The notes under the pieces were generated by a model. The model did no database searches. It was not told where the DNA came from and saw only the letters and a list, made by a program, of their open reading frames with translations. 64,000 nt of DNA from Candidatus Nanoarchaeia archaeon. Lineage in GTDB: Archaea; Nanobdellota; Nanobdellia; Pacearchaeales; GW2011-AR1. Position 1 is the stretch's first letter; every line of letters begins with the position of its first letter. The DNA lies in contig JBAQGX010000003.1 of NCBI GenBank assembly GCA_049288015.1, positions 55,662 to 119,661 of the forward strand. The letters run 5' to 3'. The position numbers were made by a program, and so were the translations under genes. This document shows, one piece after another, positions 2,978 to 20,212 of this stretch.

Positions 2978-4357
2978 ATGAAATCTAGTATTAAAGAAAA
3001 TATTTCTTCCGGTGCAGGGGATATAAAAAAGTTATGGCATAGACTAAAGAATCGTGATTTTTCTGGAAATTCAGGACTTGCAATACAAAATAGTCTATAT
3101 CAGTTCCTTACAAATGTGTCCACAAAGTTAGGTGCACTAATATTTACTGTAATTTTAGCAAGAGTAATGATGCCTACTTTGTTTGGGGAGTACAGCCTTG
3201 CTCTTTCAGTGGTCTTAATTTTTGTTTCTTTTTCAGACTTAGGTATTGGAGATACGATGATCCGGTTTGTATCAAAAAAAATTGGAGAGAATAATCCCCA
3301 AAAGGCAAAAACTTACACTAAATATTTTATCAAAATAAAATTTGTATTTATATTTTCTATATCTCTACTTATTCTTATTTTAGCAAAAGTTATCTCAAAC
3401 ATTTATCCTAATGAACCTATATATTTGGCTCTTATGGCCGGATCTATCTATATTTTCTTTGTGGGATTTGTTGCATTTTTTATAAATGTTTTAAATGCGA
3501 ATAGTCATTTTAAACCAATATTTTATAGAGAAACAGTCTTTCAAGTTATAAGAATTATATTAATCCCCTTAATTACTATTTATCTTTTGAAAAATAATTT
3601 TAGTAGTGAACTGATTTTATTTTGGAATATTGCAATGTTAGCGGTAACATATTTTCTTTCAGGATTTACCTTTTTATCTTACAAAGAAGTAAATATATTT
3701 TCCATACTTAAACAGAAAGAGCAACTTTCTTCGCCTGAAAAGAAACAAGTAAATAAGTTCATTCTTCTTATGTCTGCTACTGTCTTTTCGGGTGTATTCT
3801 TTGGATATATTGATACCGTAATTCTTGGACTTTTTGTCCAGCCCCAATATATTGGATATTATAGAGCAGCATTTAATCTTATAGCTGCGATAGCCCCACT
3901 AATAACCCTCTACGTTGCAGTATATCCTATTTTTAACAAACTAAACAAAGAAGATCTTGAAATATTATTTAAGAGATCATTCAGGATAACTTTAATCTTA
4001 TCTGTACTAATTTCAATATTTCTATTTGCATTCGCAAATATTATAATTAGTCTTATTTATGGATCTGCATATTCAATGTCTGCCAATATACTCAGGATAT
4101 TTTCAATAGTATTAGTCACATTCCCAATAACTGGAATTTATTATGCTTATTTTGCTTCAATAGGAAAGCCAGAAATTAATACCAGGACGCTTGCTTGGTC
4201 TACAGTAATTAATATTGCCCTTAATATAATTTTGATTAGCTGGCTTGTAAGATATAGCCCTCTTTGGGCTGCATATGGAGCAGCAGCAGCAACGATTATA
4301 AGCAGATGGTTTTATACAATAGCATTAGCAGTTTATAAGAGAAAATTGAAGACCTGA
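2978..4357 (+). CDS. oligosaccharide/polysaccharide flippase (Wzx/MOP superfamily)
   Basis: 459 aa with about 12 predicted TM helices. It has the Wzx-like architecture and opens the glycan cluster. Confidence 0.65.
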   Translation: MKSSIKENISSGAGDIKKLWHRLKNRDFSGNSGLAIQNSLYQFLTNVSTKLGALIFTVILARVMMPTLFGEYSLALSVVLIFVSFSDLGIGDTMIRFVSKKIGENNPQKAKTYTKYFIKIKFVFIFSISLLILILAKVISNIYPNEPIYLALMAGSIYIFFVGFVAFFINVLNANSHFKPIFYRETVFQVIRIILIPLITIYLLKNNFSSELILFWNIAMLAVTYFLSGFTFLSYKEVNIFSILKQKEQLSSPEKKQVNKFILLMSATVFSGVFFGYIDTVILGLFVQPQYIGYYRAAFNLIAAIAPLITLYVAVYPIFNKLNKEDLEILFKRSFRITLILSVLISIFLFAFANIIISLIYGSAYSMSANILRIFSIVLVTFPITGIYYAYFASIGKPEINTRTLAWSTVINIALNIILISWLVRYSPLWAAYGAAAATIISRWFYTIALAVYKRKLKT

Positions 4358-4374
4358 AAAATTTTAATAATTTA

Positions 4375-5571
4375 TTAAACTTTTTTCAAACTTAGTAACT
4401 TATTATATTCTTTTATGCAAGTATCTGCGAGAAAACTATAATCATATTTTTCTGCCATTTTTTTGGAAACCTCCCCCATTTTTTTCATTTTTGATTTGCC
4501 GCTATTATATATTTTTAATAAAGCATCCCTTATTCCCAGAGGATTTTTGAATCCAACAACAAAACCATTTTTACCATTATCAACTAAATAGGGTTGAGCT
4601 GAACTAACAATAGGTAGCCCGCAGGCCATTGCCTCTTGTATTGTAATCATAAATTCTTCTGAGAGGGTTGCAGCAACAAAAAGATCTGATGAAAAGTAAT
4701 AATCATATAAGACTTTTTCTGGAACATTTTTCCTATGAAAAACATCTTTCTCCAATTCTAACCCTTCTTCTTTTACCCATTTATACATATCTTCTTCCAA
4801 GATCCCTCGACCAACCATCAAAAGTTTGGCATTTGGAATATCTTTCTTTAAAAGAGCAAATCCTTTTATGATATCATCGATTCCTTTATCTGGTGCTATC
4901 TGTCCGGTACTTAAAATCAATAAATCATCTTTCTTGATTCCGAGTTCCTTTCTTTTATCTTCATAACTCTTTTTCATATTTTGAATCTGATAAAAATTAA
5001 CTCCATTTGGTAAAAGAAAGATTTTATCTTCTGAAACTCCTAGCTTAGTTATTCTTGGAACTTGGAACTCTCCATCTGCAGCTATAGAATCTGATTTCTC
5101 CAAGACATACTGCCAAGGTTTTCTTAAAAACAACTTAATATATAATTTGCTTATGCCCTTTTGTCTCAAAGTTTCCTTCCCATACCATGCCTCCATACCC
5201 CATGTTTGATAGATTACTGGTTTCCTTTCTTTCTTATGTAAATACCACCAAGCAAACGATTCAGTACTATGTAATATATCAAAATTAGTTTTTTGGAGAT
5301 ATTTCATAAGATTATAACTAAATACAAATTTGTATGGTATGTTAGGAAATATCCTTCTAACCCCTGTATAAACAGGAGGCAGGAAAATATAACTAACACC
5401 ATTATACACGGTTTCTTTGAGTTTAGGATTGTCCTTAAGTTTGGTTGTAACAACAGTGACATTTATACCTTTTTTTACTAACTCTTCAGAAAGGTAGTGA
5501 ACATATTTTGATCCCCCATCAAATGCATTATGAAAATGGAAAGTTTCCATTCTTGGAAAGACTACCCTCAC
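4375..5571 (-). CDS. glycosyltransferase family 4 (GT-B, retaining)
   Basis: 398 aa. The C-terminal GT1/GT4 EX7E-type motif is present (ATLSEEFMITIQEAMACGLPIVSS). Confidence 0.8.
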   Translation of the reverse strand: MRVVFPRMETFHFHNAFDGGSKYVHYLSEELVKKGINVTVVTTKLKDNPKLKETVYNGVSYIFLPPVYTGVRRIFPNIPYKFVFSYNLMKYLQKTNFDILHSTESFAWWYLHKKERKPVIYQTWGMEAWYGKETLRQKGISKLYIKLFLRKPWQYVLEKSDSIAADGEFQVPRITKLGVSEDKIFLLPNGVNFYQIQNMKKSYEDKRKELGIKKDDLLILSTGQIAPDKGIDDIIKGFALLKKDIPNAKLLMVGRGILEEDMYKWVKEEGLELEKDVFHRKNVPEKVLYDYYFSSDLFVAATLSEEFMITIQEAMACGLPIVSSAQPYLVDNGKNGFVVGFKNPLGIRDALLKIYNSGKSKMKKMGEVSKKMAEKYDYSFLADTCIKEYNKLLSLKKV

Positions 5572-6104
5572 TTTACTACTTCTAATATAAAATGAACTTC
5601 ATTTGCAGGGAATAGATTTGCAAAAAAGGCCTCATAAATATTTGGAAATTTATTTGCAAAGAAATAAAGACCAAAAAAAGTATAGGTTCTGCAGAAAACA
5701 ATTTCTTTTTTAAAAAATTTAAATCTTATATCTCCATACTCATGAGATTGAATTTTGCCAATATGATTTTTTCCCTTAGGTTCGAATTCAACATAATCAA
5801 AACTGGTAAAGCTAAAAGGATGTAGATGAGTTAAATCCGAAGCAGCTGCACTTGAAGAATAATATGGAACCCTTATATCAATTCTTCCTCCTTTTTTCAC
5901 AACTCGATGCATTTCATTTATCAACGGGATTATATTCCAAACATGTTCTATAACATGATATGCTATTATCTCGTCTACTGAATCGTCCTTAAAGGGGAGC
6001 TTTTTTTCTAAATTAATAACCATATCTGGATTTACTGTGGACGAAATGTCACAATTCAAATATCCATCTAGCTTTACTTGACCACATCCCAAATTAAGCT
6101 TCAT
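5568..6104 (-). CDS. class I SAM-dependent methyltransferase
   Basis: 178 aa. Motif I LNLGCG is near the N-terminus and the size fits the Methyltransf_11 type. There is a 4-nt overlap with the neighbouring gene. Confidence 0.7.
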   Translation of the reverse strand: MKLNLGCGQVKLDGYLNCDISSTVNPDMVINLEKKLPFKDDSVDEIIAYHVIEHVWNIIPLINEMHRVVKKGGRIDIRVPYYSSSAAASDLTHLHPFSFTSFDYVEFEPKGKNHIGKIQSHEYGDIRFKFFKKEIVFCRTYTFFGLYFFANKFPNIYEAFFANLFPANEVHFILEVVK

Positions 6105-7180
6105 TTTACTAGTACTTCTTTTATAATTTTACAAATCTTCTCAATTTCTTCTTTTTTTAACTTAGAAGAAGAAGGTAAGTTGAGTCCTCTCTTTTCCAAT
6201 TCTTCTGCTACAGGAAAATGTTCTTTAGTAAAATAAGGGGGCATTTGATTCAAGGGTATAAAGAAAGGTCTCGTCTCTATCCCCTCTTTTTCCAATCTTT
6301 CAATAACCTCTTCTTTTTTATTAGTCAGGATTATATTCATCCAATACACATTTTTTCTGTCGTCTTTTTTCGGGATAAATCCCATACTTTTGATACCTTT
6401 TAACAATTGAACATATAAATCTGAATTTTCTTCCCTTATTTTTAAGAAAGACTTTATCTTTTCTAATTGTGCCAAACCTATTGCAGCTTCTATGTTAGTC
6501 ATTCTATAGTTGAATCCAATAACAGAATGCCAATATCTTCTTTCTTTACTCATTCCCTGATTCCTAAATAATTCCATTTTTTCTTTCAATTCTTCATTAT
6601 TTGTAACACACATTCCTCCCTCACCTGTCGTAATAACTTTATTACCAAAGAAACTAAAACATCCGATATCTCCAAAACTACCTACTTTTTTACCATTATA
6701 TTCAGCCCCATGAGCTTCTGCGCAATCTTCTATAACATAAAGATTATGCTTATTTGCAATTTCCATAATCTTTCCCATATCGCAAGGTATTCCATATAAA
6801 TGTACTGGAATTATTGCTTTTGTTTTTTTGGTGATTTTCTTTTCAATTTCATTAGGATCAATTGTCCAGGTATCTCTTTCAGAATCTACAAAAACAGGAG
6901 TAGCATTAACATATTTTACTGCATTTGCAGTTGCAATATAAGTAGACACTGGAACTATGACCTCGTCACCATCTTTTATACCTAATGCGAGTAAAGCAAG
7001 ATGTAATGCCGCAGTTCCATTACAGCAGCCAATTCCATATTTTACTTCGCAAAATTCCGCAAATTCTTTCTCAAATTTGTGAATATATTCTCCTTTGGAC
7101 GAGATCCAACTGCTTTTCACCGCGTCTATTACATATTCTAATTCTTCGTTTCCAAGCAGTGGTTCAGATACCGGAATCAT
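6101..7180 (-). CDS. DegT/DnrJ/EryC1/StrS-family PLP-dependent sugar aminotransferase
   Basis: 359 aa. The N-terminus MIPVSEPLLGNEELEYV..WIS.G is typical of nucleotide-sugar aminotransferases. Confidence 0.8.
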   Translation of the reverse strand: MIPVSEPLLGNEELEYVIDAVKSSWISSKGEYIHKFEKEFAEFCEVKYGIGCCNGTAALHLALLALGIKDGDEVIVPVSTYIATANAVKYVNATPVFVDSERDTWTIDPNEIEKKITKKTKAIIPVHLYGIPCDMGKIMEIANKHNLYVIEDCAEAHGAEYNGKKVGSFGDIGCFSFFGNKVITTGEGGMCVTNNEELKEKMELFRNQGMSKERRYWHSVIGFNYRMTNIEAAIGLAQLEKIKSFLKIREENSDLYVQLLKGIKSMGFIPKKDDRKNVYWMNIILTNKKEEVIERLEKEGIETRPFFIPLNQMPPYFTKEHFPVAEELEKRGLNLPSSSKLKKEEIEKICKIIKEVLVK

Positions 7181-7250
7181 CTTAATAAAAATCTCCCATA
7201 TTTTATGTCTATTTGAAATTATATATAAAGGTTTTTATTCCTTATGGATG

Positions 7251-7763
7251 TTAATTCTGATGTAAAAAATCTAAAATCTTTTTAACAGACTCTTCGACAT
7301 TTTCTTTTGTAGAATTAATCTCTACTTCCGGAGATTCTGGAGGTTCGTAAGGAACGTGTAATCCAATAAAGTTTTTAATTTCCCCAATTTCTGCTTTTGC
7401 ATATAATCCCTTAACATCTCTTTTCTTGCATTCCTCATATGAGCATTTTACATATATTTCAATAAAATTATCTCCTAAAACTCTCCGTGCCATTTCACGG
7501 GATTCTTTGAAAGGCGAGATTATTGGAACTAATATGTAATCCACTATACCCATAGAGTCTTTGCACAACTCAACTATTAATCTATTATTTTCTTTTATAT
7601 CTTCAGGGGTAAATCCTAAATGCTTGTGCAATCTTTCTCTAACATCATCACCATCAAAGATTTCATAGCTTTTGCCAAGATTATCAAATTTTTTTCTGAG
7701 AAGGTCTGTGATGGTACTTTTACCACTTCCAGATAATCCAGTAAACCATAGAACTTGAGTCAT
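7251..7763 (-). CDS. cysC: adenylylsulfate (APS) kinase
   Basis: 170 aa. It has the FTGLSGSGKST P-loop and APS-kinase length. It overlaps the upstream sat fusion by 4 nt. Confidence 0.85.
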   Translation of the reverse strand: MTQVLWFTGLSGSGKSTITDLLRKKFDNLGKSYEIFDGDDVRERLHKHLGFTPEDIKENNRLIVELCKDSMGIVDYILVPIISPFKESREMARRVLGDNFIEIYVKCSYEECKKRDVKGLYAKAEIGEIKNFIGLHVPYEPPESPEVEINSTKENVEESVKKILDFLHQN

Positions 7764-9970
7764 TCTACAAAAACTTTATCTCCCTTCTTTATACTTTCAA
7801 TGATTATATCAGATATTTCTGGTCTCATAAACCATTCTGGAGGTCTTATACCCTTATTTAGCATTTCTCTTGCCTGAGTTCCAGAAATATGCATCTTATT
7901 TTCTTCAGGATAGTCAATAAAATCGGGTTCATGTATGTACTTGTTGTCTAAATCAGAATAAAAAACAGTATCAAATTTTATTATTTCCATACCAAGTTCT
8001 TCTTTTGTAAATTTGTTAAAGATTTTGTGAGAAGCTTGCGGATCATAAAAATTTCCAACTCCTGTATGATCTCTTCCAACAATAAAGTGAGAACATCCGA
8101 AGTTCTTTCTTACTAGTGCTGTAAAGACTGCTTCTCTTGGTCCACCATATCTAGAATATGTTCCCAGAGTTCCAAAAACAACTTTTGATTTAGGATAAAT
8201 GTCTTTAATCATCTTCTCATAAGTTTTGATTATTATATCTGACTCAAAATCTCCAATTTTTTTCTTTCCTATAACCGGATGAACAAATAAACCATCACAA
8301 AGTCCTCTTTTTAGTCCTTCCAATTGTACAAATTCATGAGATCTATGTATAACATTTCTTGTATGAAATCCAACTACTTTGCTCCACCCTCTTTCCGAAA
8401 ATATTTTTCTTGTCTGTTTAGGTGTTAATTCATGACTGTTCTGGGAAATTCTTTTTTTTATTAAGCTAATTTTTCCACCCAAAAAAGTATTTCCTCCATC
8501 CAAAAACTTTTTTACTCCCGGATGATTTTCATCCAAAGTTCCGTAAACTTTTAAGGCGAGGTCACTTTTGTTCAAATTATATATCTCTTCTATATGAAGT
8601 ATGGCGTAGACTTCATTATCTTTAGATAACGATACATCTTCATTTTCTTCAAAGTTATTGGATATTTTTTCATCTATTTTTAATAAAATTGGTAAAGGCC
8701 AAATTGCATTGTTGGGTAATCGCATGTTATCTGCAACAGATTCTGCTTCATTCTTTTTCATAAAACCTTCAATAGGACTAAATGAACCCATTGCAATTTG
8801 TTCCACATCCATTAAAGTTTCTTCATCAATCTCAATTTTTTTATTTGGAATTATTCCATTATAATTTGGAAAGAATCTATTTACAAGTTTACCTCCATGA
8901 GGTTTTACCAATATTTCTGGAACTTTATCTGATTTTATATAGTTAGAATTAATTATCTTAGTAACTAAATCTTCTCCTTTTTGACTATTCAAAAAATTAA
9001 CTTGCTTCATCAGTACAGATAGCATATTAACTGTCTCAACAGGGTATTTTCCGACAGCAGTTTCTTTTGTTAATGCAATACCACTAACCCCATCTAAAAG
9101 TGTATTTATTATATCATTAACCTCTGCCTTATTTGGTTTTAATGCCATAGACATTTGTTCCAAGGTATTTGTTGCAACAAAAATTTCTTTTCCAAGATCT
9201 CTAACATTCTTTATTATTAACTTTTGAATAAAAGGAATCTTTTCAAGAGGAATTTGTGAACTTAAATCTCCTCGGTCAATAAGTATTCCATCAGAAACTT
9301 TTGCAATTTCAATAAAATTTTCTAGACCTTTTTTTGATTCTATCTTTGAGTATACTATTGCTTCTGGATATATCTTTCTAAATTTTGATACACTTTCAGG
9401 ATCTTCCATAAAAGATAGCGTGAAGTGGTTTATATTATGCTTTTTTGCAAGTTCAATAGCAGTGTGATCTTTTTTACTAAAAGGAGGTAAATTAAAGGTA
9501 GGACTATCCACTAAAACTGCTTTCTTTCCTCCTACTAGTCCGCCAATTATAACTTCGCACAATATATATCCTTCAACTATTTTTGAAGTATCAAAAACTC
9601 TAAGCAGAACCGAATTAAAATCTATAGAGATTAAATCCCCTACATCTAATTTTTTTATAATCCCGCTTGGATTTAAAAAAAGATTATTAGCATCGCATTT
9701 AATAGGATCTCCAAATAATTTAATCAAGTCCCCATCATTAAATCTAATCTCTTCGGTGTTGCCGGATCTTATTTGTGACCCTTCGGTATCTAGTATTATA
9801 GGTACTCCATAATCTATAATATCCCTTATTTTTTCATCAATTTCGTTTTCCTCAGTATGAGAGAGATTTATCCTAAAAAAATCAACTCCGCTATTTTTTA
9901 ACTTCCCAAGAGTTTCTGGATTATTAGATGAAGGACCTATAGTGCATATGATTTTTGTGCCATTTATCAT
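7760..9970 (-). CDS. sat: bifunctional fusion: N-terminal pyruvate-kinase-like barrel domain plus C-terminal sulfate adenylyltransferase (ATP sulfurylase)
   Basis: 736 aa. The N-terminal ~330 aa carry PK motifs (KIICTIGP, FRINLSHT, DTEGSQIR, KIESKKGLEN, DRGDLS, TKETAVGKYP). The C-terminal ~400 aa carry ATP-sulfurylase motifs (GFHTRNVIHRSHE, IVGRDHTGVG). Confidence 0.8.
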   Translation of the reverse strand: MINGTKIICTIGPSSNNPETLGKLKNSGVDFFRINLSHTEENEIDEKIRDIIDYGVPIILDTEGSQIRSGNTEEIRFNDGDLIKLFGDPIKCDANNLFLNPSGIIKKLDVGDLISIDFNSVLLRVFDTSKIVEGYILCEVIIGGLVGGKKAVLVDSPTFNLPPFSKKDHTAIELAKKHNINHFTLSFMEDPESVSKFRKIYPEAIVYSKIESKKGLENFIEIAKVSDGILIDRGDLSSQIPLEKIPFIQKLIIKNVRDLGKEIFVATNTLEQMSMALKPNKAEVNDIINTLLDGVSGIALTKETAVGKYPVETVNMLSVLMKQVNFLNSQKGEDLVTKIINSNYIKSDKVPEILVKPHGGKLVNRFFPNYNGIIPNKKIEIDEETLMDVEQIAMGSFSPIEGFMKKNEAESVADNMRLPNNAIWPLPILLKIDEKISNNFEENEDVSLSKDNEVYAILHIEEIYNLNKSDLALKVYGTLDENHPGVKKFLDGGNTFLGGKISLIKKRISQNSHELTPKQTRKIFSERGWSKVVGFHTRNVIHRSHEFVQLEGLKRGLCDGLFVHPVIGKKKIGDFESDIIIKTYEKMIKDIYPKSKVVFGTLGTYSRYGGPREAVFTALVRKNFGCSHFIVGRDHTGVGNFYDPQASHKIFNKFTKEELGMEIIKFDTVFYSDLDNKYIHEPDFIDYPEENKMHISGTQAREMLNKGIRPPEWFMRPEISDIIIESIKKGDKVFVE

Positions 9971-10049
9971 ATTCCTAAACTTGGTTATTTCCTTTTAAAG
10001 CTTATGAAATTTAGACATACTTTTAAGTAACTTTTAAAAATAAAATATC

Positions 10050-10835
10050 ATGGTAATTACAATGGATGATAATATACTTTGGATTCATTTGCATCCTCCT
10101 AGAACTGGAGGTAACACCATTGTTGAGACGATACTTAAACACTTTCCAAGAGAGGAAATATATATGACCTCTCTAGCAAGATATGGGATAGATACAGAGA
10201 AATTTGATAAGAATAAGGTCAGATTTATATTGGGACATGCTACTTATTACGGGATAGATAAATTGGTCCCTCAAAGAGTTCCAAGATATTTTGTCATTCT
10301 AAGGGATCCTGCAGAAAGGCTTGTTTCACACTATAATGCTAAGATGCAAGATGAAGAGAAGAAGATACCATTTGATAAGTGGTATAAAAATCAGATAAAA
10401 AACGAGATGGTTAATTTTCTAGACTTAAAATTTAGGGGAAGTGAATCTAGCAGAATGCGTGTTCCCAGGTTTATTTTGCCCTTAATAAAGAGGGTTAGCT
10501 ATAAAACAGTCTACTTTTTTCAAACAATTTTATTCAATTTGTTTAATCTCAATAAAAAGAACGATTTGAAAAAATTGGAGAATGCAAAAAAGTTGTTGGA
10601 TCTGTGTTGGTTTGTCGGAACTACTGAAGGGAGTAAAAAAGATTTTAAATTTATTTTTAATTCTATCGGGTTAAAAGATGTAAAATATAAAGATAATGGC
10701 GTAAGTAAAAAAGTTGTTAAAATAGATAATCAGCTTAGAGAAAGGATCTATAAAGATAATTCTTTAGATGTTGAATTATATAAATATGGATTAGAACTTA
10801 ATAAAAGACTAAGAGAAAAATATAAAATTAAATAA
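10050..10835 (+). CDS. PAPS-dependent sulfotransferase family protein
   Basis: 261 aa. The 5'-PSB-like motif is HLHPPRTGGNT. The 3'-PB-like motif is ILRDPAERLVSHY, of the RDPxxRxxS type. It is divergent from sat-cysC. Confidence 0.65.
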   Translation: MVITMDDNILWIHLHPPRTGGNTIVETILKHFPREEIYMTSLARYGIDTEKFDKNKVRFILGHATYYGIDKLVPQRVPRYFVILRDPAERLVSHYNAKMQDEEKKIPFDKWYKNQIKNEMVNFLDLKFRGSESSRMRVPRFILPLIKRVSYKTVYFFQTILFNLFNLNKKNDLKKLENAKKLLDLCWFVGTTEGSKKDFKFIFNSIGLKDVKYKDNGVSKKVVKIDNQLRERIYKDNSLDVELYKYGLELNKRLREKYKIK

Positions 10836-11910: not shown

Positions 11911-12123
11911 TAGAAACCATATGAGAAATGATTTAAAAACTTTCTGAATTACAAACCTTTAATATAACTCTTCTAGAACTTAAATTCATCTGTAAAATTT
12001 ATCAACTAAGATTGTCATTGCAAGGTCTAAATTTTTTGAAACATACGGATGTAAATTTGATAGCTTATTTTCCTTTTTATTCAACATATTTGGGGTTACA
12101 ATAATTGGATTATTATCTAATTC

Positions 12124-12603
12124 TCAAAATTTCAATTCCCCTTCACCTTGTGCATAATAAATACCCATATAATCTCTAACTCCTTTCCCTCCTTTATTGA
12201 TATTCTTAGAAATTGTGGTCCATCCACAGTCCGCTCCTCCGAAATAAACAAAGTCCGAAAGATTTAGATTGGCTTCTCTTTTTGCATTAGCACTTAAAGC
12301 ATTTCTTAATCCAATAGTGCCTCTAGGTATACCTCCCCCTATTGGCCATAAAAGATCTTTTGCAGGATGACCCTTTCGGGTAATTAACAATATGCCTCTT
12401 TCATTTTTTTCATTTAAACATGCGATAAGACCATCAACACTTCCACGCACAAGGTAGGATCTTGCAGAATAATAATCTTTATCTGAGATTAATCCTGGAC
12501 TAAAACTGTTCTCGTCAAACGGAGACCCTTCATTTTCAATAAAAGTAATAGGCTCAAAGATTTTTGAGTATTTTCTTATTTCTGATGCAGTAATATTATC
12601 CAT
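12124..12603 (-). CDS. hypothetical protein (possible degenerate NUDIX-like fold)
   Basis: 159 aa. A ...LLWPIGGGIPRG... segment is only loosely Nudix-box-like. It sits next to gmd. Confidence 0.35.
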   Translation of the reverse strand: MDNITASEIRKYSKIFEPITFIENEGSPFDENSFSPGLISDKDYYSARSYLVRGSVDGLIACLNEKNERGILLITRKGHPAKDLLWPIGGGIPRGTIGLRNALSANAKREANLNLSDFVYFGGADCGWTTISKNINKGGKGVRDYMGIYYAQGEGELKF

Positions 12604-12680: not shown

Positions 12681-13781
12681 ATGTTTATGAAAATTGTAAT
12701 GATTTACCCAAGTTCGTTATCGGAAAAAGGAATTTCAAAATATTCTCAAGATTTAATTAGTAACATAAGAAAGCAAGATGTAGACATAGACGAAATTACA
12801 TTCACCCAAGGAAAGTCTTCTACTTTATTTAAACAAATACCTAAAATCTTAAAATACGACGTAATACACATTCAGCATGAGTATAATCTCCTAGGAGGTT
12901 ATGGAATACCTTACTTTGCATTATTTGGAATATTAGGTCTTTTTAAGAAAAAAAGAATTATAACAACAATGCATACAGTTCCATCTTTAAAAGGTGAATT
13001 TCAAAGTGGAAAAATCAAAACTTTTTTGAGAAAAGTTCTTTATAAATTACAAAATAGACTGATAAATGTTAATTCTAATAAAATAATAGTTCATTCGGAA
13101 GCGTTTAAAAGAATTTTATCAGAAGAGTATCATGTTTCAGAAGAAAAAATAAATGTTCTTACTCATGCAATAATTGAAGATATAAAAATCACAAATAAAA
13201 ATAAGGCGAAGAAAGACTTGAAATTAGAAGGTAATGTCTATTTACTTATTGGGACTATGATACGAGACCATGGGCATGATATAATCTTAAGGCAAGCTGA
13301 CAAAATTGGTAAAACTATTTTAGTTGCTACCAACCCCCTCGCGATTAACTACAGAAACGAGGAAAAAATAAAAGAATTTTTAAAACTAAATCAAGATATT
13401 GTTTCACAAAATCATTTTGAGAATTTTGTACGGTTTGATCTCGGACAAATTTCTTATGAAAAATGGTGGGAATATTTTTCCGCAGCAGATTTAATTTTGT
13501 TACCTTATAGAGGGGGAATAGGTAGTGGGATTTTTGCGGACGCAATGGCAGCACAAAAACCAGTAATTTCTAGTAATGTCCCTTATTTTAAAGAGATTGC
13601 AAAAGACTATGATTGTATAAAAATTGCAGATACAGATAATGATTTTGCTGAAATAATTAAAGAATCAATGAAACCAGAAAATTATAAAAAAATGATAAAA
13701 GGATGTGAAAAATTTTTGAAGGAAAATGGATTAACTCCTATTTCAAGAAAATATAAGGAAATTTATAAATCATTATTATGA
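12681..13781 (+). CDS. glycosyltransferase family 4
   Basis: 366 aa. The C-terminal GT4 motif region is present (LILLPYRGGIGSGIFADAMAAQKPVISSN). Confidence 0.75.
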   Translation: MFMKIVMIYPSSLSEKGISKYSQDLISNIRKQDVDIDEITFTQGKSSTLFKQIPKILKYDVIHIQHEYNLLGGYGIPYFALFGILGLFKKKRIITTMHTVPSLKGEFQSGKIKTFLRKVLYKLQNRLINVNSNKIIVHSEAFKRILSEEYHVSEEKINVLTHAIIEDIKITNKNKAKKDLKLEGNVYLLIGTMIRDHGHDIILRQADKIGKTILVATNPLAINYRNEEKIKEFLKLNQDIVSQNHFENFVRFDLGQISYEKWWEYFSAADLILLPYRGGIGSGIFADAMAAQKPVISSNVPYFKEIAKDYDCIKIADTDNDFAEIIKESMKPENYKKMIKGCEKFLKENGLTPISRKYKEIYKSLL

Positions 13782-14620
13782 AAATAGCAATAATAGGAGC
13801 AAATGGTTTTTTAGGTAAAAAGTTGAAAGAATACTTTTCTAAAAACAATGAGGTTATATCTGCAGGAATTAATGGAATAGGGGATATAATACCCTTAGAT
13901 GCCTCTGATAAGAAAGCTGTTGAAGATTTTATTTCTAAATACAATCCAGAAGTAGTCATAGATACTGTTGCCTTATCAAGTTCAGTGGCATGCGAAAAAG
14001 ATCCAAAGCTTTGTAAAAAACTAAATTATATTTCTGCAAAGAATATCGCAGATTCTTGTAAGAAAAATAATTCTGAAATGGTCTTTATTTCATCTTCGTA
14101 TGTTTTTGATGGTAATAAGGGAAGTTACAAAGAAGATGATCCAGTTTTACCTACAAATCAATATGCAATCACTAAGATTATGGCTGAAAAGGAAGTATCA
14201 AAATTATCTAGATTTTTGATCATAAGGGTTGAAATGATGTACGGACTAGATCAAAAAAAGATTAGATTTGGGACAGGGGGATTTAATAAAGAAATTATTG
14301 AAGTAGGATATCCAAAGCAAGTAAGAAACCCGCTTTTCGTTAATGATATTCCAAAGATAATAAATGAACTAATAAATAAAAGACAAAAGGGAATTTTCCA
14401 TTTAGCTGGCCCGGACAAGATTTCATTACTAGACTTTATAATGAAATTGTCTAAATTAGAAAAAGCAGAGAAAAAGGTTAAGATTGTAGATAGTTCTAAT
14501 TGGGCCATTAAATCTCCTAAAAATTCAACATTAGATACGTCTAAAATTAATTCCTTGGATATACACACTACTCCCCTAGATCTTTCATTAAGTGAAATAA
14601 AAAAAGAAATTATTAATTAG
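13778..14620 (+). CDS. RmlD-like NAD(P)H-dependent nucleotide-sugar 4-ketoreductase (SDR)
   Basis: 280 aa. It has the N-terminal glycine-rich loop MKIAIIGANGFLGK and a YAITK (YxxxK) catalytic motif. It overlaps the upstream GT gene. Confidence 0.65.
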   Translation: MKIAIIGANGFLGKKLKEYFSKNNEVISAGINGIGDIIPLDASDKKAVEDFISKYNPEVVIDTVALSSSVACEKDPKLCKKLNYISAKNIADSCKKNNSEMVFISSSYVFDGNKGSYKEDDPVLPTNQYAITKIMAEKEVSKLSRFLIIRVEMMYGLDQKKIRFGTGGFNKEIIEVGYPKQVRNPLFVNDIPKIINELINKRQKGIFHLAGPDKISLLDFIMKLSKLEKAEKKVKIVDSSNWAIKSPKNSTLDTSKINSLDIHTTPLDLSLSEIKKEIIN

Positions 14621-15881
14621 AGTTAATATCTATTACTCTCAATCTAGGGAAAGGTAATATAAATTTCCCTCCATTATTCAAGTATTCTTTCTCATCATCG
14701 CCAATGCCTTTGAATATATGCCAAATTAAAACTAATTGATAGTCAGGGTTGTATTTTTTTATATTATCTGGGGAAGTGATGGGAATTAATGAACCTACAG
14801 TTAATTTTCCCTCTTTATCTGGGTTTCTGTCAAAGATACAATCAATTAAGTCTGGGCCAAGATTAAAATATTGGAGAGTTGTATTTCCCCTAGTAGACGC
14901 TCCTAATCCACATATTATTTTACCGGACTTTTTCTCATTTTTTAAAAAAGTCAATAATTCTTCTTTTATAGAATCAATCCTAGATGCGAAATCTAAGTAA
15001 GGCTTTTTAGTGTTAAGTCCTATTATCTTTTCTTTTTCATTTATCTCCTTCAAGTAATCTTTGTCCGATTCTGAAGAATTAATTGTCTCATTGTCTTTAA
15101 ATTTAATATAAGTTCTTATGCTTCCTCCATTTACTTCATTTTGTTCTATCTTAAAAATTTCTAGGTTATATTTATCTAAGAGGTTTCTAAGAGATAAAAG
15201 TGAATAGTACTCTCTGTGCTCATGGCAGATATTATCTACTGCATTATTTTCAAGCATAGCAATTAAATAATTTTGCTGAATTATAAAAATCCCATTTTTA
15301 TCTAAAACTGAAACAATATCTTTTAAAAATTTATTTGGATTATCAAGATCATAAAACATTGAAATAGCAGTTATTATTTTTGCTTTGCTATTTTCAGATT
15401 TTGAAAAATCATCTGCATTAAAAAAATTATTTATTATTTTATATCCTTTGCTGCTTGCCTCTTTAGCTACATTTTTTGAAGGTTCAAATCCAATAATATT
15501 GATTCCTTTGCTTTTATCATAAGAATCTAACAGTGTTCCATCATTGCACCCTATATCTATAACAGTATCTCCCTTCCTTAATTGGACTATCTTCTGAGCT
15601 TTCTCAACTATATCCTTTAGATCCTCTCTAATCATTCTGTTTATTCCAGATTTATACCAATACTGGTCTCCCCACATAGAACTAGCAGGAGCATTGTGTT
15701 TTAATTGTAATAACTTGCAATTTTCACATAAAACTAATTCTAATGGAACGAGGGGGATATCTCTTTGTTCTTCCTCAGAGCTGACAAAATTTGTAACATA
15801 TTGATTACCTAAGGATATTATGGGAGTTAACTCTACAGAACCACACGATCTACATTCCTTTATTTCTAAAGTCTTTTCCAT
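14613..15881 (-). CDS. sugar C-methyltransferase-like protein (Zn-ribbon + SAM MTase + C-MT C-terminal domain)
   Basis: 422 aa. The N-terminus has CxxC...CxxC (CRSCGS...CENCKL), followed by the SAM motif VIDIGCNDG. The architecture resembles TylCIII/NovU-type sugar 3-C-methyltransferases. Confidence 0.55.
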   Translation of the reverse strand: MEKTLEIKECRSCGSVELTPIISLGNQYVTNFVSSEEEQRDIPLVPLELVLCENCKLLQLKHNAPASSMWGDQYWYKSGINRMIREDLKDIVEKAQKIVQLRKGDTVIDIGCNDGTLLDSYDKSKGINIIGFEPSKNVAKEASSKGYKIINNFFNADDFSKSENSKAKIITAISMFYDLDNPNKFLKDIVSVLDKNGIFIIQQNYLIAMLENNAVDNICHEHREYYSLLSLRNLLDKYNLEIFKIEQNEVNGGSIRTYIKFKDNETINSSESDKDYLKEINEKEKIIGLNTKKPYLDFASRIDSIKEELLTFLKNEKKSGKIICGLGASTRGNTTLQYFNLGPDLIDCIFDRNPDKEGKLTVGSLIPITSPDNIKKYNPDYQLVLIWHIFKGIGDDEKEYLNNGGKFILPFPRLRVIDINSN

Positions 15882-16020: not shown

Positions 16021-17133
16021 ATGAAACATCTAAAAGTATTTATCAATCCAGGGATCCACCCTCAGTTTAGAGAGATAATTGATTTTCCACCAGAAGATGT
16101 AGAATATGTTTATGATCCTATAGTTGGAGATCACAATAATGAATTAACTAGGAGAAAGAGAGAAGTTATTTCTTTTGTACAGAGATATCTCCAAGTTCCT
16201 AGGATGGCAAAAATAGAGAATGAGGATAAATTTGATCTTATCCATTCCACGAGAGGAATTCTAATAAGAAATAAGAAACCATGGGTTATTGACTTAGAAT
16301 CTGGTGCTGCCTTTTCCGGTTTGGAATGGACAACATTAAAGAAACCCAGAATGAGAAGACTGATAAGAAAATATCTTTCCTCTCCTTATTGTAAAAAAAT
16401 AATGCCCCAAAGCGAAGCGGCTAGGAAAACTCTGCTTGAAAATGTTGACTGTTTTGGTTTTGAAGATAAAATAGAGACAGTTTATTTGGCTTATCATACA
16501 ACTAAACTAGAAAGAAAAAAATCAGATAAAGTTAGATTATCTTTTATCGGAAGAGGATTCTTCGAAAAAGGAGGTAATGATGTGCAAGAGGCGTTTAAGA
16601 TATTAGATAAGAAATATCCTGGTAAGCTTCAATTAAAAGTCAAATGTAATGTTCCAGAAGACCACAAATTGGATATGAACAATGTGATTTATTTGCCAAA
16701 AATAGATGATCCTTTAGAATTTTATAAAGAAATATTTGGAGATTGCGATATTTATGTACAACCAACCACTGTGGATAGCTTTGGTGTTACTATATTAGAA
16801 GCAATGTCAACAGGACTACCCATAGTTTGTACAGATGATTTTACTCTGCCAGAATTAGTAGAAGACGGCCATAATGGGTTTTTGGTGAAAAGTCCTGTTC
16901 ATTGGTATCCTTATGGTATAAAAGGGGAATGGAAAGAATATACAAAAAAAGCAGAAGAGGAACATCCAGAGACTGTTCAAGAATTAGTTGAAAAAATTTC
17001 CCTGCTTATAGAAAATCCAAAATTAAGAGAAAAAATGGGAAAAAATAGTTTTGATATCGTTGAATCTGGGAAATTTTCGATAAAAGAAAGGAACAAAAAA
17101 TTAAGAAAAATTTATGATGAAGCTCTTAGGTAA
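16021..17133 (+). CDS. glycosyltransferase family 4
   Basis: 370 aa. The GT4 C-terminal motif is present (FGVTILEAMSTGLPIVCTDDFTLPELVEDGHNGFLV). Confidence 0.75.
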   Translation: MKHLKVFINPGIHPQFREIIDFPPEDVEYVYDPIVGDHNNELTRRKREVISFVQRYLQVPRMAKIENEDKFDLIHSTRGILIRNKKPWVIDLESGAAFSGLEWTTLKKPRMRRLIRKYLSSPYCKKIMPQSEAARKTLLENVDCFGFEDKIETVYLAYHTTKLERKKSDKVRLSFIGRGFFEKGGNDVQEAFKILDKKYPGKLQLKVKCNVPEDHKLDMNNVIYLPKIDDPLEFYKEIFGDCDIYVQPTTVDSFGVTILEAMSTGLPIVCTDDFTLPELVEDGHNGFLVKSPVHWYPYGIKGEWKEYTKKAEEEHPETVQELVEKISLLIENPKLREKMGKNSFDIVESGKFSIKERNKKLRKIYDEALR

Positions 17134-18050
17134 TTAATAAATTTTTTAATCCCTTCTTCGGGGCTCATTGGTTCTATTCCCAATATTTCCCTCATTAGCT
17201 TCGTATCTGCTTCAAGATTTTCAACATAATTGGCTTCCTTTGGAATAAAAATTGGTTCTAAATTAGTATTGAAATCATCTTTTATAGTTTTTAACAATTG
17301 TCTGAATGATTTAGATTTTCCAGTTCCAACATTGATTATACCTGTATACTCAACCTCTGCAGATCTTACAATCATTTTAACTACATCTTCTATATAAACA
17401 AAATCACGGGTTTGATTTCCATCCCCCCATATTTCTGGGGCCTTTCCATTCATATAATCTTTTATGAATAAGTAAAGTACACTTCCAAAATCTTTCTTTC
17501 TTTCTTCACCAGGCCCATATCCAGCAAAAATTCTTAGACCAACCGATTTCACAAAATCAGAATAAGAACTTGCAAGGCCTTCACAAGCCATTTTGCCTGC
17601 AGCATATAAATTTCGTGGTTTAATATAAATATTTTCTCTGTGAGGCATCTCATTTCCTGCATAATTGCTTCCGGAAGTAGGATATACCAATTTCTTTGTT
17701 TTGTTTTGTTTTGCAAATTCCAGTGCTTCATACAAACCAAAGATAGTTTCGCTTAAGCATTTTTCTGGAGTTTTTTTGAATAGTGTTATGGATGATGGTG
17801 CAGCAAAATGGAAAATATAGTCTATATCTTTTGGAACTTTAGCCCATGATTCATGTTTGGATACATCTCCCTCGATTATATTTATTTTTTTTAAAAAATC
17901 CAACTTGTCTTTAAATTTCTCATAATCTGTGTAAGAAAAATTATCAATTGAATAGACAATAGCTCCTCTCGAAAGTAACTCTTTTGTAATGTTTGATCCT
18001 ATAAATCCACTTGCTCCATTAACCAAAACTTTTTTGTCTTTCCAATCCAT
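17112..18050 (-). CDS. NAD-dependent nucleotide-sugar epimerase/dehydratase (extended SDR)
   Basis: 312 aa. It has the NGASGFIGSN Rossmann loop and a YAAGK catalytic motif. Its 3' end overlaps the convergent GT gene. Confidence 0.75.
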   Translation of the reverse strand: MDWKDKKVLVNGASGFIGSNITKELLSRGAIVYSIDNFSYTDYEKFKDKLDFLKKINIIEGDVSKHESWAKVPKDIDYIFHFAAPSSITLFKKTPEKCLSETIFGLYEALEFAKQNKTKKLVYPTSGSNYAGNEMPHRENIYIKPRNLYAAGKMACEGLASSYSDFVKSVGLRIFAGYGPGEERKKDFGSVLYLFIKDYMNGKAPEIWGDGNQTRDFVYIEDVVKMIVRSAEVEYTGIINVGTGKSKSFRQLLKTIKDDFNTNLEPIFIPKEANYVENLEADTKLMREILGIEPMSPEEGIKKFINYLRASS

Positions 18051-18099
18051 GGAATTTGGAAAGACTAGTTATTTTTAAGTCTTATGTATCTTAAACACA

Positions 18100-19206
18100 C
18101 TATTTTAATATTTCTAAAATTTTCTTGCTTACTCCACTTTCTCCGTATGGGTTTTTAAAATTTTTAATTTCAACTTTGTTATTTTCTATATCTTCAATAA
18201 TTTTCTTAGCATAGTCTATATCAAATTTTATGAGAAAATTTATTCCGCTTTCAATGCCTTCTTGTCTTTCAGTTCTTTCTCTAAGAATTAAGCAAGGTTT
18301 TCTAAATACTAAACTTTCTTCTTGAATGCTTCCCCCATCCGTAATTAAATACTTGCTATTGGCTAATAAGAAAATAAACTCAAAATAATCAATGAGTGGA
18401 GTAATTTTGATATTTTTCATCTCTTCGATTTCTTTCATCAAGCCATATTTCTCCAAATATTGTCTGGTATTATCATGAAGAGGCCATATTCCTTTTATTT
18501 TTACATTCTTTATGACTTCGACAATACTAATCATCCTTTTCTTATTTACTAAGTTCTCATGTCTATGAATATTTATAAGAACATAATCTTCATCAAGTTT
18601 TTTATACTTTTTTTTAGCTTTATTATATGTAATCTGTGCAGATTCTATAATGGTATTTCCAACATTTACTATTTGCCCTTTCTTTCTTTCTTTTATTAGA
18701 TTGTTTGCAGAAAAATCTGAAACTGCTAGTAGTATATCCGAGTTTCTATCACATATTTTTCGGGAAATTTCTTCGGGAAATGGTTCCCATATGCTACCAC
18801 TTCTTAATCCAGCTTCCAAGTGAACACTTTTCCAAGATTTATTATGATTTAATAATCTGCTGGAAGCTATTGAAGCTGCTGCAGTGCTCATAGTATCTCC
18901 ATGATAAATAACATAACTTGGCTTTAGTTCTCTTATTTTTCTCCTAATTCTAAAAATAGTTTTGATAAACCAAAATAAAGAGCTACTGTTAACTTTTGAC
19001 CAAAATTTTGTACTTTTTTCTGGTTCTATACTAAGAGTAAAATCTGGTCGTTTTATTCCAAATATACTACATGCTTCTCCGAGAGGATGCTGACCTGTAT
19101 GAATAAACCAATATTCTCTCTTCTGTTTTTGTAATTCGAGCATTAAAGGCATACATTTAATCAGTTCTGCTTTAGTGCCTAATATGAATGTTATTTTGTT
19201 TTCCAT
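18100..19206 (-). CDS. wecB: UDP-N-acetylglucosamine 2-epimerase (non-hydrolysing)
   Basis: The HLEAGLRSGS motif is present and the size fits WecB. I moved the start to MENKITFILGTK; the ORF track starts 12 codons earlier at 19242. Confidence 0.8.
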   Translation of the reverse strand: MENKITFILGTKAELIKCMPLMLELQKQKREYWFIHTGQHPLGEACSIFGIKRPDFTLSIEPEKSTKFWSKVNSSSLFWFIKTIFRIRRKIRELKPSYVIYHGDTMSTAAASIASSRLLNHNKSWKSVHLEAGLRSGSIWEPFPEEISRKICDRNSDILLAVSDFSANNLIKERKKGQIVNVGNTIIESAQITYNKAKKKYKKLDEDYVLINIHRHENLVNKKRMISIVEVIKNVKIKGIWPLHDNTRQYLEKYGLMKEIEEMKNIKITPLIDYFEFIFLLANSKYLITDGGSIQEESLVFRKPCLILRERTERQEGIESGINFLIKFDIDYAKKIIEDIENNKVEIKNFKNPYGESGVSKKILEILK

Positions 19207-19213
19207 ATTATTT

Positions 19214-20212
19214 TTATAAAAGATAAGTAAAAACCAGTACAATGATTATTATTAACAACTGGAAGCAATTTATCAAATTTACAACATCATTTTCATAAAC
19301 TTTATGGCTCGGCTTTATTTTTTTCAAAATTTTTATAGATAAATGTTCTAATCCATAAATTTTGTCATATGCAAGATCTAAACTTCCGTCGGGATTTGGC
19401 TTTCCGAAACTATATTTCTTTAGTTTTCCTCTTGCTTTCAAGATTGTTTCAATTATGTATGGTATAAAGAATAATATAGTAATAACTTCCAGATTTCCCA
19501 ATATAGCAATTGCAGCAATCATCATACCAATAGAGTAAGTCATCACATCTCCTGGAAAGACTTTTGCCGGATTTTTATTATAAATATAGAATGCAACTAG
19601 TGATGCTACCATTATCAAAGAAATCAGACTAAGCCAAGTATTTCCACTTAGATATGTTGCCAGCGCAAGTGCGGAAAGAATTAATATTCCTTGCCTTGCT
19701 TCAAGACTATTATAACCAGCCAAAAAATTATATGTTGTGGTTGCTCCGACAACTCCAATCGGAATTATTATTAGAGGATATAATATGCCTAAGCTGATTC
19801 CCATAACAACAGAGTTTCCTGCATTTATTACCATTAAAGGAATTGCGGAGAATAACACTAAAATTAATCTAGATCGAATGGACATCCCGCCCTTTTGCCA
19901 TCCAAATAAGTCATCAACTAAACCAATTCCAGCTACCAAGAAAAGTGAACTTATTATTGCAAATATCTGAATTGTATCTTCTGATGATTTAAAATAAAAT
20001 GTTTGTATTGCAATGTATAAAAAAATACCAATAAGTGTTGCAAGTACAGCAACAATTCCCCCCGAACCTGCAACATTTTTTTCTCTTTTTGGCTTGTTCA
20101 TATCTTCCCAAACCAAGCCGATTTCCTTTGCTTTTCTTATCCAGAAGGGCATAACAATTAAAGTAACAAAAAAACTTACTAAGACTGTCCCCAAAAGCCA
20201 AGGATTTACCAT
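19214..20212 (-). CDS. aglH: GT4-family (MraY/WecA/AglH-like) dolichyl-phosphate GlcNAc-1-phosphate transferase
   Basis: 332 aa with about 10 TM helices. The GLVDDLFG motif is characteristic of polyprenyl-phosphate HexNAc-1-P transferases. Confidence 0.75.
   Translation of the reverse strand: MVNPWLLGTVLVSFFVTLIVMPFWIRKAKEIGLVWEDMNKPKREKNVAGSGGIVAVLATLIGIFLYIAIQTFYFKSSEDTIQIFAIISSLFLVAGIGLVDDLFGWQKGGMSIRSRLILVLFSAIPLMVINAGNSVVMGISLGILYPLIIIPIGVVGATTTYNFLAGYNSLEARQGILILSALALATYLSGNTWLSLISLIMVASLVAFYIYNKNPAKVFPGDVMTYSIGMMIAAIAILGNLEVITILFFIPYIIETILKARGKLKKYSFGKPNPDGSLDLAYDKIYGLEHLSIKILKKIKPSHKVYENDVVNLINCFQLLIIIIVLVFTYLL

Follow-up and report, generated by a model that had tools for sequence, protein, structure and literature searches.

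Introduction

Sulfated N-glycans have long been known in haloarchaea. In Sinorhizobium, NodP and NodQ act together with NodH in sulfation of the Nod factor, and NodP/NodQ is a heterodimeric, GTPase-coupled enzyme of the CysDN type in which GTP hydrolysis serves as the drive. Here we describe a surface-glycan locus of the archaeon Candidatus Nanoarchaeia archaeon, in which a gene for a pyruvate kinase (PK) fused to an ATP sulfurylase (Sat) stands beside genes for an adenosine 5'-phosphosulfate (APS) kinase and a sulfotransferase. The locus occupies positions 2978-20212 of a 64,000-nucleotide stretch (GenBank assembly GCA_049288015.1, contig JBAQGX010000003.1, positions 55,662 to 119,661 of the forward strand), and this whole stretch is called the window below.

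The nearest described counterparts are the archaeal agl clusters, such as those of the AglH pathway in Methanococcus voltae and M. maripaludis and the aglB-anchored cluster of Halobacterium salinarum, whose product is a sulfated tetrasaccharide. The present locus shares with them an initiating transferase of the Alg7/AglH family, soluble glycosyltransferases (GTs) of the cytoplasmic face, a predicted methylation and sulfation of the lipid-linked glycan, a flippase, and nucleotide-sugar genes clustered with the GT genes. Unlike in these clusters, no AglB is encoded in the window, and the Pacearchaeota-type glycan is known here from genes alone. VNG1056C and VNG1057C of Hbt. salinarum, the sole archaeal N-glycan sulfotransferases identified by experiment, are described as alkaline-phosphatase-domain proteins, with no mention of 3'-phosphoadenosine 5'-phosphosulfate (PAPS) (PMC11980604), and sulfotransferases and PAPS are both absent from a 2024 review of archaeal N-glycosylation. 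In contrast, the locus studied here encodes a classical PAPS-motif sulfotransferase with its own PAPS-synthesis genes. Given the different domain of the Halobacterium enzymes and the silence on PAPS, a PAPS route in an archaeal glycan locus would be a different solution.

Genome surveys of DPANN archaea have assigned sat to sulfur metabolism and PK to energy conservation in glycolysis (PMC8091004, PMC12153355); in the DPANN-HV survey these headings are sulfur catabolism for sat and glycolytic ATP conservation for PYK (PMC8091004). A vent-chimney metaproteome, in which few Pacearchaeota proteins were detected, includes a "pyruvate kinase" of this lineage (PMC11537232). Where fusion proteins of archaea have been surveyed systematically, a Sat-histidine phosphatase is the only Sat fusion listed (PMC11237513), and no description of a PK-sulfurylase fusion was found in the searchable literature, the coverage of which is incomplete. 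Taking the evidence together, we consider it probable that the locus assembles an unpolymerised, lipid-linked, sulfated glycan, which AglB likely transfers, and that a PEP-driven (phosphoenolpyruvate-driven) reaction supplies PAPS locally.

Results

Architecture and conservation of the fusion protein

The fusion gene (7760-9970, minus strand) encodes 736 aa that divide into a PK A/B barrel (residues 4-325), a PUA-like domain (355-505) and an ATP sulfurylase domain (514-725). Gene identities here and below come from profile searches with Pfam and NCBIfam, in which NCBIfam bit scores are read against the cutoff of the family. Residues 4-314 match PF00224 end to end (8e-63). The protein also matches PF14306 (1e-42) and PF01747 (8e-74) and exceeds the cutoffs of the ATP sulfurylase profiles NF003166 (419.8 bits vs 387) and TIGR00339; the ATP sulfurylase structure 8a8d is matched at 1e-90, and bifunctional PAPS synthases match the sulfurylase domain at 1e-57 to 1e-62. 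No match to the PK C-domain (PF02887) occurs in the 736 aa. The pyruvate kinase model TIGR01064 scores 247.5 bits, below its cutoff of 306.4, over model positions 3-336 of 476 only. A single-chain AlphaFold (AF2) model of the fusion is confident throughout (pLDDT 90, pTM 0.84).

The catalytic residues of PK are present in the fusion as R33, N35, S37, D61, T62, R68, K150, K209, E211, D235, T267 and E303, which correspond to R72, N74, S76, D112, T113, R119, K206, K269, E271, D295, T327 and E363 of rabbit muscle PK. This set covers the binding of PEP, ADP, Mg2+ and K+, including the catalytic Lys, the Mg2+ ligands and the K+ site, together with the Thr proton donor. Among 119 fusion homologues, with identities as low as 44%, all these positions show little or no variation, and the sulfurylase motifs HTRNVIHRSH, GPREA and VGRDH are conserved to the same degree in 120 sequences. 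The two halves of the protein are equally conserved across homologues, with a mean identity of 0.64 for the PK half and 0.63 for the sulfurylase half.

Directly downstream, a CysC-type APS kinase (7251-7763, minus strand; TIGR00455, 185.6 bits vs a cutoff of 138.7) begins within the last 4 nt of the fusion gene, its start codon overlapping the stop. Among the matches listed, 20 of the 120 homologues (about 17%) also carry a C-terminally fused APS kinase. The fusion and the APS kinase thus appear to be a translationally coupled pair that would make PAPS locally. On the other side, across a divergent promoter region of 79 bp (9971-10049) in which each start codon is preceded by a TATA-like box at a distance of about 28-29 nt, lies the gene for a soluble PAPS-type carbohydrate sulfotransferase (10050-10835, plus strand; 261 aa, no transmembrane (TM) segment; PF03567, 1.7e-10, 41.9 bits vs a cutoff of 22). 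Its sequence contains a motif like the 5'-phosphosulfate-binding loop (PPRTGGNT, residues 16-23) and a 3'-phosphate-binding motif (RDPAERLVSHY, residues 85-95), the latter aligning with heparan-sulfate 2-O-sulfotransferase. An earlier interpretation of the window, made from its letters and open reading frames (ORFs) and referred to here as the sequence-only reading, had predicted a sulfate decoration. That prediction is borne out by the APS kinase, the ATP sulfurylase and the PF03567 sulfotransferase, of which the first two had not been named there, and the fusion to PK had been missed.

Distribution and gene neighbourhood of the fusion

In a scan of one genome per species, 577 stretches encode a relative of the fusion protein. 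The best 80 of these 577 all cover essentially the whole 736 aa, so that the full-length fusion is present in at least 80 species-level genomes, where its database names are "sulfate adenylyltransferase" or "pyruvate kinase". The best 80 come from Pacearchaeota, Woesearchaeota, Nanoarchaeia and many lineages of the candidate phyla radiation (CPR)/Patescibacteria, and among other bacteria from Omnitrophota, Chloroflexota, Planctomycetota, Acidobacteriota, Elusimicrobia and Proteobacteria.

To see what these genes stand next to, the two closest genes on either flank were assigned to Pfam families in 35 loci of diverse taxonomy, 140 proteins in total. Sulfotransferases lead the count, with 19 matches to Sulfotransfer_1 and 18 to Sulfotransfer_3; APS kinase and GT1/GT4 transferases follow with 10 each, methyltransferases with about 10, GT2 with seven and the CysQ-like Inositol_P family with five. 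Within 10 kb on either side of 83 fusion loci, APS kinase is found in 46, DegT in 25 and GDP-mannose 4,6-dehydratase (GMD) in 17. PAPS reductase and sulfite reductase are not among the top 25 neighbour families in the 35 genomes. As sulfotransferases top these statistics, the fusion is best seen as part of a module that provides PAPS for sulfation, and not of assimilation or dissimilation. The surveys cited above list DPANN sat under sulfur cycling (PMC12153355, PMC8091004), in keeping with a sulfurylase and APS kinase that serve sulfur assimilation or dissimilation. We hold that assignment to be very improbable indeed for this gene, since no APS/PAPS reductase or sulfite reductase was found in the scanned window ORFs or the top neighbour families, and since the fusion gene has a divergent partner in the gene of a PAPS-type sulfotransferase. 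This divergent pair is kept in four related contigs (L006, L007, L008 and L078).

Two other loci illustrate the range of surroundings. A relative with 70% identity (L002; ena k141_463552, 1-22205) lies in a larger glycan cluster with GT2 and GT4 genes, a PMT/ArnT-like GT-C protein, a CDP-alcohol phosphatidyltransferase, a TylF-type O-methyltransferase and a faint Sulfotransfer_3 match, from which it follows that the sulfation genes travel with very different glycan gene sets. In a Pacearchaeota metagenome-assembled genome (MAG), DPANNHV_H1.bin.39 (L033; JAAOYK010000067.1, 3905-6097), the fusion adjoins DegT-, GMD- and SDR-like genes (SDR, short-chain dehydrogenase/reductase). The isolate name suggests that this MAG comes from the DPANN-HV survey, in which one gene may have been scored under both the sat and the PYK heading.

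A proposed role for pyruvate kinase in sulfate activation

PK and PEP are used in vitro as a regeneration system in APS-kinase assays, and the coupling proposed here mirrors that arrangement. The most economical mechanism for the putative PK activity would be a coupling of PEP to sulfate activation, in which ADP left by APS kinase is rephosphorylated by the PK domain, with PEP as donor, right where sulfate is activated. Such coupling would pull the unfavourable sulfurylase/kinase sequence forward and, by keeping ATP high and ADP low, relieve inhibition by ADP. The net reaction would be sulfate + ATP + PEP -> PAPS + PPi + pyruvate, and the soluble PAPS-dependent sulfotransferase would then sulfate the growing glycan, its putative acceptor.

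The conserved residues are those of ordinary PKs, and they would equally suit a protein that is the cell's glycolytic pyruvate kinase; the PK part might also be a non-catalytic scaffold, and in either case there would be no coupling to sulfate activation. Surveys of DPANN do score PK as a glycolytic gene (PMC8091004), and the metaproteome detection of a Pacearchaeota "pyruvate kinase" (PMC11537232) points in the same direction. We nevertheless find this doubtful. DPANN, CPR and no fewer than eight further bacterial groups have kept the fusion, among them organisms with contigs of 5-10 Mb; the PK C-domain is always absent, and an APS kinase has been added in about a sixth of the listed homologues; the neighbours are sulfotransferases and glycan genes, not glycolytic genes; and in the supplement of PMC11537232, K00873 has a patchy distribution over Pacearchaeota MAGs that a core gene of glycolysis would not be expected to show. 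A PEP-coupled role is what we prefer. Beyond this locus, we advance more tentatively, as a serious possibility rather than an expectation, that PK-sulfurylase(-APS kinase) proteins are an undescribed class of PEP-driven PAPS synthases in DPANN, CPR and other phyla, which feed the sulfotransferases of surface glycans.

Predicted assembly of a lipid-linked glycan

The locus is filled by 16 ORFs in eight strand blocks. It runs from the start of the flippase gene (2978) to the end of the AglH-like gene (20212), with SecF and SecD (511-2947, by Pfam) on one side and, from 20278, a SpoIIM-like gene, prefoldin, SecY and the ribosomal-protein operon on the other. ORF mapping and profile searches reproduce the gene content and flanks given in the sequence-only reading, and its calls of a Wzx-like flippase, DegT, GMD, small methyltransferase, Zn-ribbon C-methyltransferase, RmlD-like protein, WecB and AglH-like transferase are upheld. 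The assignment to lipid-linked oligosaccharide assembly also holds, with an AglH-type initiating transferase, soluble GTs, a flippase, tailoring enzymes and sulfation genes all present.

The initiating enzyme (19214-20212, minus strand; PF00953, 1.1e-25) is a polytopic polyprenyl-phosphate HexNAc-1-phosphate transferase of the DPAGT1/Alg7/AglH type. Its best solved relative is human DPAGT1 (5e-12, vs 7e-4 for MraY), with which the motifs DD, LAGxNxLE (here LAGYNSLE) and PGD align, and its predicted specificity is that of the eukaryotic/archaeal GlcNAc-1-P type. An identity as archaeal MraY, of the pseudomurein pathway, was considered and rejected (NCBIfam, 39 bits vs a cutoff of 450). The flippase (2978-4357, plus strand; 459 aa) is a polytopic member of the MOP superfamily, Wzx/AglR-like, with multiple hydrophobic segments (PF01943, 7e-20; also PF13440, MatE and MurJ). 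Three PF00534 proteins of the GT-B fold have no TM segments and are soluble: GT4a (4375-5571, minus strand; PF00534 3e-28, PF13439 1e-17), GT4b (12681-13781, plus strand; PF00534 4e-09, PF13439 1.5e-08, a weak match) and GT4c (16021-17133, plus strand; PF00534 1e-22). Four GT4 transferases had been called earlier; only three pass the profiles. Failure of most GT calls on profile search, raised beforehand as a possible outcome, did not occur.

In the scheme we propose, the DPAGT1/AglH-type enzyme would load HexNAc-1-P, probably GlcNAc-1-P, onto polyprenyl (dolichyl) phosphate at the cytoplasmic face; the three GT4-type transferases would extend the chain with sugars made in situ; and the MOP flippase would export the finished unit without polymerisation, after which an AglB encoded elsewhere would most likely transfer it to surface proteins. 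Among the 16 locus ORFs, Pfam, NCBIfam and hydrophobicity revealed no Wzy polymerase or Wzy_C/O-antigen ligase, and no Wzz/PCP, OPX or ABC exporter was found among them. An exopolysaccharide locus with Wzy and no link to dolichyl phosphate is thus not what these ORFs make up, since Wzy and Wzz are both missing and the only polytopic proteins of the locus are the flippase and the AglH-like transferase. We infer the lipid carrier, the sugar structures, the N-linkage and the coupling to PEP, in contrast to the domain identities, the conservation of residues, the synteny and the neighbourhood statistics, which are direct observations.

The earlier label "agl-like" holds for the initiating transferase, the cytoplasmic GTs and the flippase, and fails for AglB within the 64-kb window; N-linkage is for that reason proposed rather than observed. 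After flipping, the product might instead become a lipoglycan or glycolipid, be used in O-glycosylation, or form a capsule-like polysaccharide. Besides the missing AglB, such a fate would suit the PMT/ArnT-like GT-C enzymes and CDP-alcohol phosphatidyltransferases of the related L002 locus, and bacterial loci for sulfated capsular polysaccharides that include sulfotransferases and PAPS genes are on record (PMC11641403, PMC11766843). We judge a product without N-linkage unlikely, as the locus has none of the polymerase and export genes named above, its initiating enzyme belongs to the type with which N-glycan precursors are begun, sequon-rich secreted proteins are encoded nearby, and AglB is reported from DPANN (Nikolayev et al. 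2020, as cited in PMC8993221).

An N-linked product thus stays the preferred one, and the window offers possible acceptors for it. Secreted window ORFs have 2-2.8 sequons per 100 aa, vs 0.2-0.6 in cytoplasmic proteins. One 941-aa ORF (54277-57102, minus strand) has a signal peptide, 26 N-X-S/T sequons (2.8 per 100 aa) and 26% Ser+Thr, and a 580-aa ORF (49230-50972, plus strand) combines a signal peptide with a C-terminal TM anchor and a KKK tail. Together with a third ORF (60293-62740, minus strand), these encode large secreted proteins with no Pfam match above the gathering cutoff, which are candidate S-layer or surface glycoproteins and glycan acceptors. Their higher GC content (0.39-0.40) reflects amino-acid composition, as GC at third codon positions (GC3) is unchanged. 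Between two of the putative surface-protein genes lie genes for a PAP2-superfamily phosphatase (50975-51595, minus strand; 4e-19) and a DedA/VTT protein (52179-52814, plus strand; 1.4e-20). Members of the PAP2 and DedA/VTT families dephosphorylate and re-flip polyprenyl-(di)phosphate carriers, and the two proteins may serve to recycle the carrier lipid used for this glycan. The sequon-rich secreted proteins, the PAP2 and DedA proteins and the reports of AglB in DPANN are taken as indirect support for N-linkage.

Sugar precursors and the Nudix-like gene

WecB, a non-hydrolysing UDP-GlcNAc 2-epimerase (18100-19242, minus strand; TIGR00236, 213.2 bits vs a cutoff of 210.15), would supply UDP-ManNAc. 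With the TTG listed as its start (19242), the gene shares 29 nt (19214-19242) with the end of the AglH-like gene, and the true start is probably further downstream, since profile matches begin at residues 16-36. GMD (10858-11910, minus strand; TIGR01472, 475.1 bits vs a cutoff of 415) would produce GDP-4-keto-6-deoxymannose. This intermediate could then be C-methylated and reduced by three proteins: a Zn-ribbon NDP-hexose C-methyltransferase of TylC3-type architecture (14613-15881, minus strand; PF08421 3e-14, PF13489 2e-19, PF08484 9e-45), an RmlD-like NDP-4-keto-6-deoxyhexose reductase (13778-14620, plus strand; PF04321 1.4e-41; TIGR01214 126.6 bits, below its cutoff of 224) and an extended SDR, an NDP-sugar epimerase or reductase (17112-18050, minus strand; PF01370 3e-42). 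The SDR had been called UDP-Glc-4-epimerase-like; the fold assignment stands and the specificity does not, the best partial NCBIfam matches being ADP-heptose 6-epimerase (145 bits) and GalE (85 bits), both below cutoff. Alternatively or in addition, the intermediate would be transaminated by a pyridoxal-phosphate-dependent sugar 4-aminotransferase of the DegT/LegC/PseC type (6101-7180, minus strand; PF01041 6.5e-133; TIGR04181 LegC 381.5 bits, below its cutoff of 420). A small class-I S-adenosylmethionine-dependent methyltransferase (5568-6104, minus strand; 178 aa; PF08241 4.8e-10) with an N-terminal LNLGCG motif is also encoded.

The conserved core of GMD, C-methyltransferase, RmlD-like protein, SDR and Nudix protein suggests a C-methyl-branched 6-deoxyhexose derived from GDP-mannose. 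The route proposed for virenose of Coxiella lipopolysaccharide consists of GMD, a TylC3-like C-methyltransferase and an epimerase/reductase; the present locus is like it in combining GMD, a Zn-ribbon C-methyltransferase, an RmlD-like protein and an SDR, here with a Nudix protein like GDP-mannose mannosyl hydrolase (Gmm) beside GMD. DegT could instead or additionally form a 4-amino-4,6-dideoxyhexose from the same 4-keto intermediate, so that the amino sugar and the GDP-mannose-derived 6-deoxyhexose listed separately in the sequence-only reading could be one sugar. Its detailed list of sugars is conjecture and over-specific.

The divergent Nudix-fold gene beside GMD (11986-12603, minus strand) is interrupted, and the 159-aa ORF called within it (12124-12603) had gone unmentioned before. 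An in-frame TGA at 12124-12126 takes the place of codon 160; beyond it the frame continues for 45 codons, whose translation aligns to the C-terminal end of uninterrupted homologues (P0122; L008:7297-7890). In an exhaustive profile search the family has about 105 representatives, typically of 175-200 aa. The NUDIX profile PF00293 is matched by 26 of the 45 members tested, at best with 1.7e-11, and by the window protein with only E = 0.28; the 159-aa ORF alone gave no Pfam or NCBIfam match and two word-index homologues. In the alignment the Nudix box GX5EX7REUXEEXGU is degenerate, and a single Glu of the REUXEE element is kept. A model of a full-length homologue (pLDDT 91.5) has as top Foldseek matches 2i8t and 1rya, both E. 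coli GDP-mannose mannosyl hydrolase (2e-7), and numerous further Nudix folds score nearly as high. Such a modelled fold fits the position beside GMD. Two explanations of the TGA were rejected: an assembly error, as the same 693 nt occur identically in contigs from four different sequencing runs or assemblies, and a global recoding of UGA, as TGA ends 15 of the 49 ordinary ORFs in the window. The TGA could represent a truncation, a recent nonsense mutation or a read-through site.

Transcription units and conservation of the locus

Several transcription units had been proposed for the locus, and the eight strand blocks and the TATA-like boxes about 28 nt upstream of many start codons agree with this. 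A box of the form YTTTTAAR or CTTAAAA stands about 27-29 nt upstream of the ATG of the genes for PK-Sat (9970), sulfotransferase (10050), GMD (11910), the Nudix-like protein (12603), the SDR (18050), the AglH-like transferase (20212), the SpoIIM-like protein (21141) and prefoldin (21577). This spacing suggests leaderless transcripts, many transcription units and internal promoters inside same-strand runs. Rfam and tRNA scans found only tRNAs in the window and nothing in the locus.

Window GC is about 31%. Per-gene GC, GC3 and GC skew were examined along the locus, where GC (0.29-0.33) and GC3 (0.19-0.27) do not differ from those of the SecDF and ribosomal genes on either side. One ORF of the locus has a 100% identical counterpart in a Candidatus Nanoarchaeia archaeon MAG. 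The largest ORF has its best relatives in MAGs of Pacearchaeota, Woesearchaeota and Nanoarchaeota, and in two Pacearchaeota-type MAG contigs (L006 and L008) almost the entire cluster is collinear at 40-70% protein identity, in the order WecB-SDR-GT4c-C-methyltransferase-GT4b-GMD-RmlD-sulfotransferase-PKSat-APS kinase-flippase. Orthologues in these two contigs share 68-69% identity for GT4c, 60-63% for the C-methyltransferase and 54-63% for GT4b; flippase orthologues (40-48%) adjoin APS kinase and SecD there and in L009 and L078. The order PKSat-APS kinase-(flippase)-SecD-SecF recurs in L001, L009 and L078, and the position next to secDF is by this recurrence ancestral in the clade. The block GT4a-methyltransferase-DegT between flippase and APS kinase is a three-gene insertion absent from the L006 and L008 clusters, which is modular variation expected of glycan loci.

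The term "island" in the sequence-only reading implied horizontal acquisition, which glycan loci, commonly mobile, would make plausible, as would the block missing from L006 and L008 and the presence of the fusion gene in very distant phyla, which implies ancient transfers. We rate such an origin for the segment as quite improbable, because its GC and GC3 are indistinguishable from those of the flanks, its borders showed no integrase, no repeats and no junction next to a tRNA, and the cluster and its secDF adjacency are common to relatives at 50-83% protein identity. As part of the overall explanation that we consider probable, the segment is a lineage-typical surface-glycan locus of a Nanoarchaeia/Pacearchaeota-type DPANN archaeon. 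It is a routine glycan gene cluster, and the PK-sulfurylase fusion is its only unusual element.

Discussion

Several observations weigh against a sulfated, lipid-linked glycan supplied with PAPS by a PEP-driven fusion enzyme. In the fusion, two PK positions carry family-specific changes (E117 to Q and S361 to T, rabbit numbering), the motif after rabbit K206 is AVLVDS where canonical PKs have GVNLPG, and the C-domain that canonical PKs use for tetramerisation is missing. Any benefit of the PK domain must be kinetic or local, because only the ADP of the kinase step is regenerated. No PAP phosphatase (CysQ) was found in the locus or the scanned window ORFs, and no sulfate transporter in the locus or in ten further window ORFs; these ten, which include ribosomal proteins, FKBP, PAP2 and DedA, gave no AglB or CysH either. 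AglB/STT3 is absent from the 64-kb window, all eight ORFs longer than 450 aa being without an STT3 match or a WWDYG-like motif. The locus has no genes for GDP-mannose synthesis, GT4b is matched only weakly by its profiles, and DPANN are often without isoprenoid lipid synthesis, which calls the source of the carrier into question.

The fusion is a widespread and apparently uncharacterised architecture that would link PEP directly to sulfate activation, and the idea is relevant to biocatalytic PAPS regeneration. It predicts that the ultra-small cells of DPANN and CPR spend scarce high-energy phosphate on sulfated and methylated surface glycans, which would make the cell surface, their host interface, a priority for them. 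If the proposal is true, this would be the first PAPS-dependent route of glycan sulfation in Archaea, distinct from the sulfatase-fold enzymes of Halobacterium, and many "sat" calls (sulfur cycling) and "pyruvate kinase" calls (glycolysis) in DPANN and CPR would be this one surface-decoration gene. Genome surveys of DPANN may therefore misread the fusion gene (PMC8091004, PMC12153355).

How does this arrangement compare with known ways of activating sulfate? As in the NodPQH system and in loci for sulfated capsular polysaccharides (PMC11641403, PMC11766843), sulfurylase, APS kinase and sulfotransferase genes lie inside a glycan locus and PAPS is made for sulfation. In contrast to NodP/NodQ, the sulfurylase here, of the homo-oligomeric Sat type, is joined to a kinase domain that uses PEP, so that the reaction would be driven in another way. 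Like metazoan PAPSS1/2, the Aquifex Sat-APS kinase (2gks) and fungal Sat with its APS-kinase-like domain, the family fuses consecutive steps of sulfate activation, whereas none of those enzymes has a pyruvate-kinase domain. With canonical pyruvate kinase (EC 2.7.1.40) it has in common the A/B-domain barrel and the full set of binding and proton-transfer residues, and it departs from it in the lack of the allosteric and tetramerisation C-domain, the E117Q exchange, the altered B-domain motifs and the glycan-sulfation context. What is new, then, is the form of PAPS synthesis that the PK-sulfurylase(-APS kinase) fusion represents, whereas the glycan locus itself is familiar.

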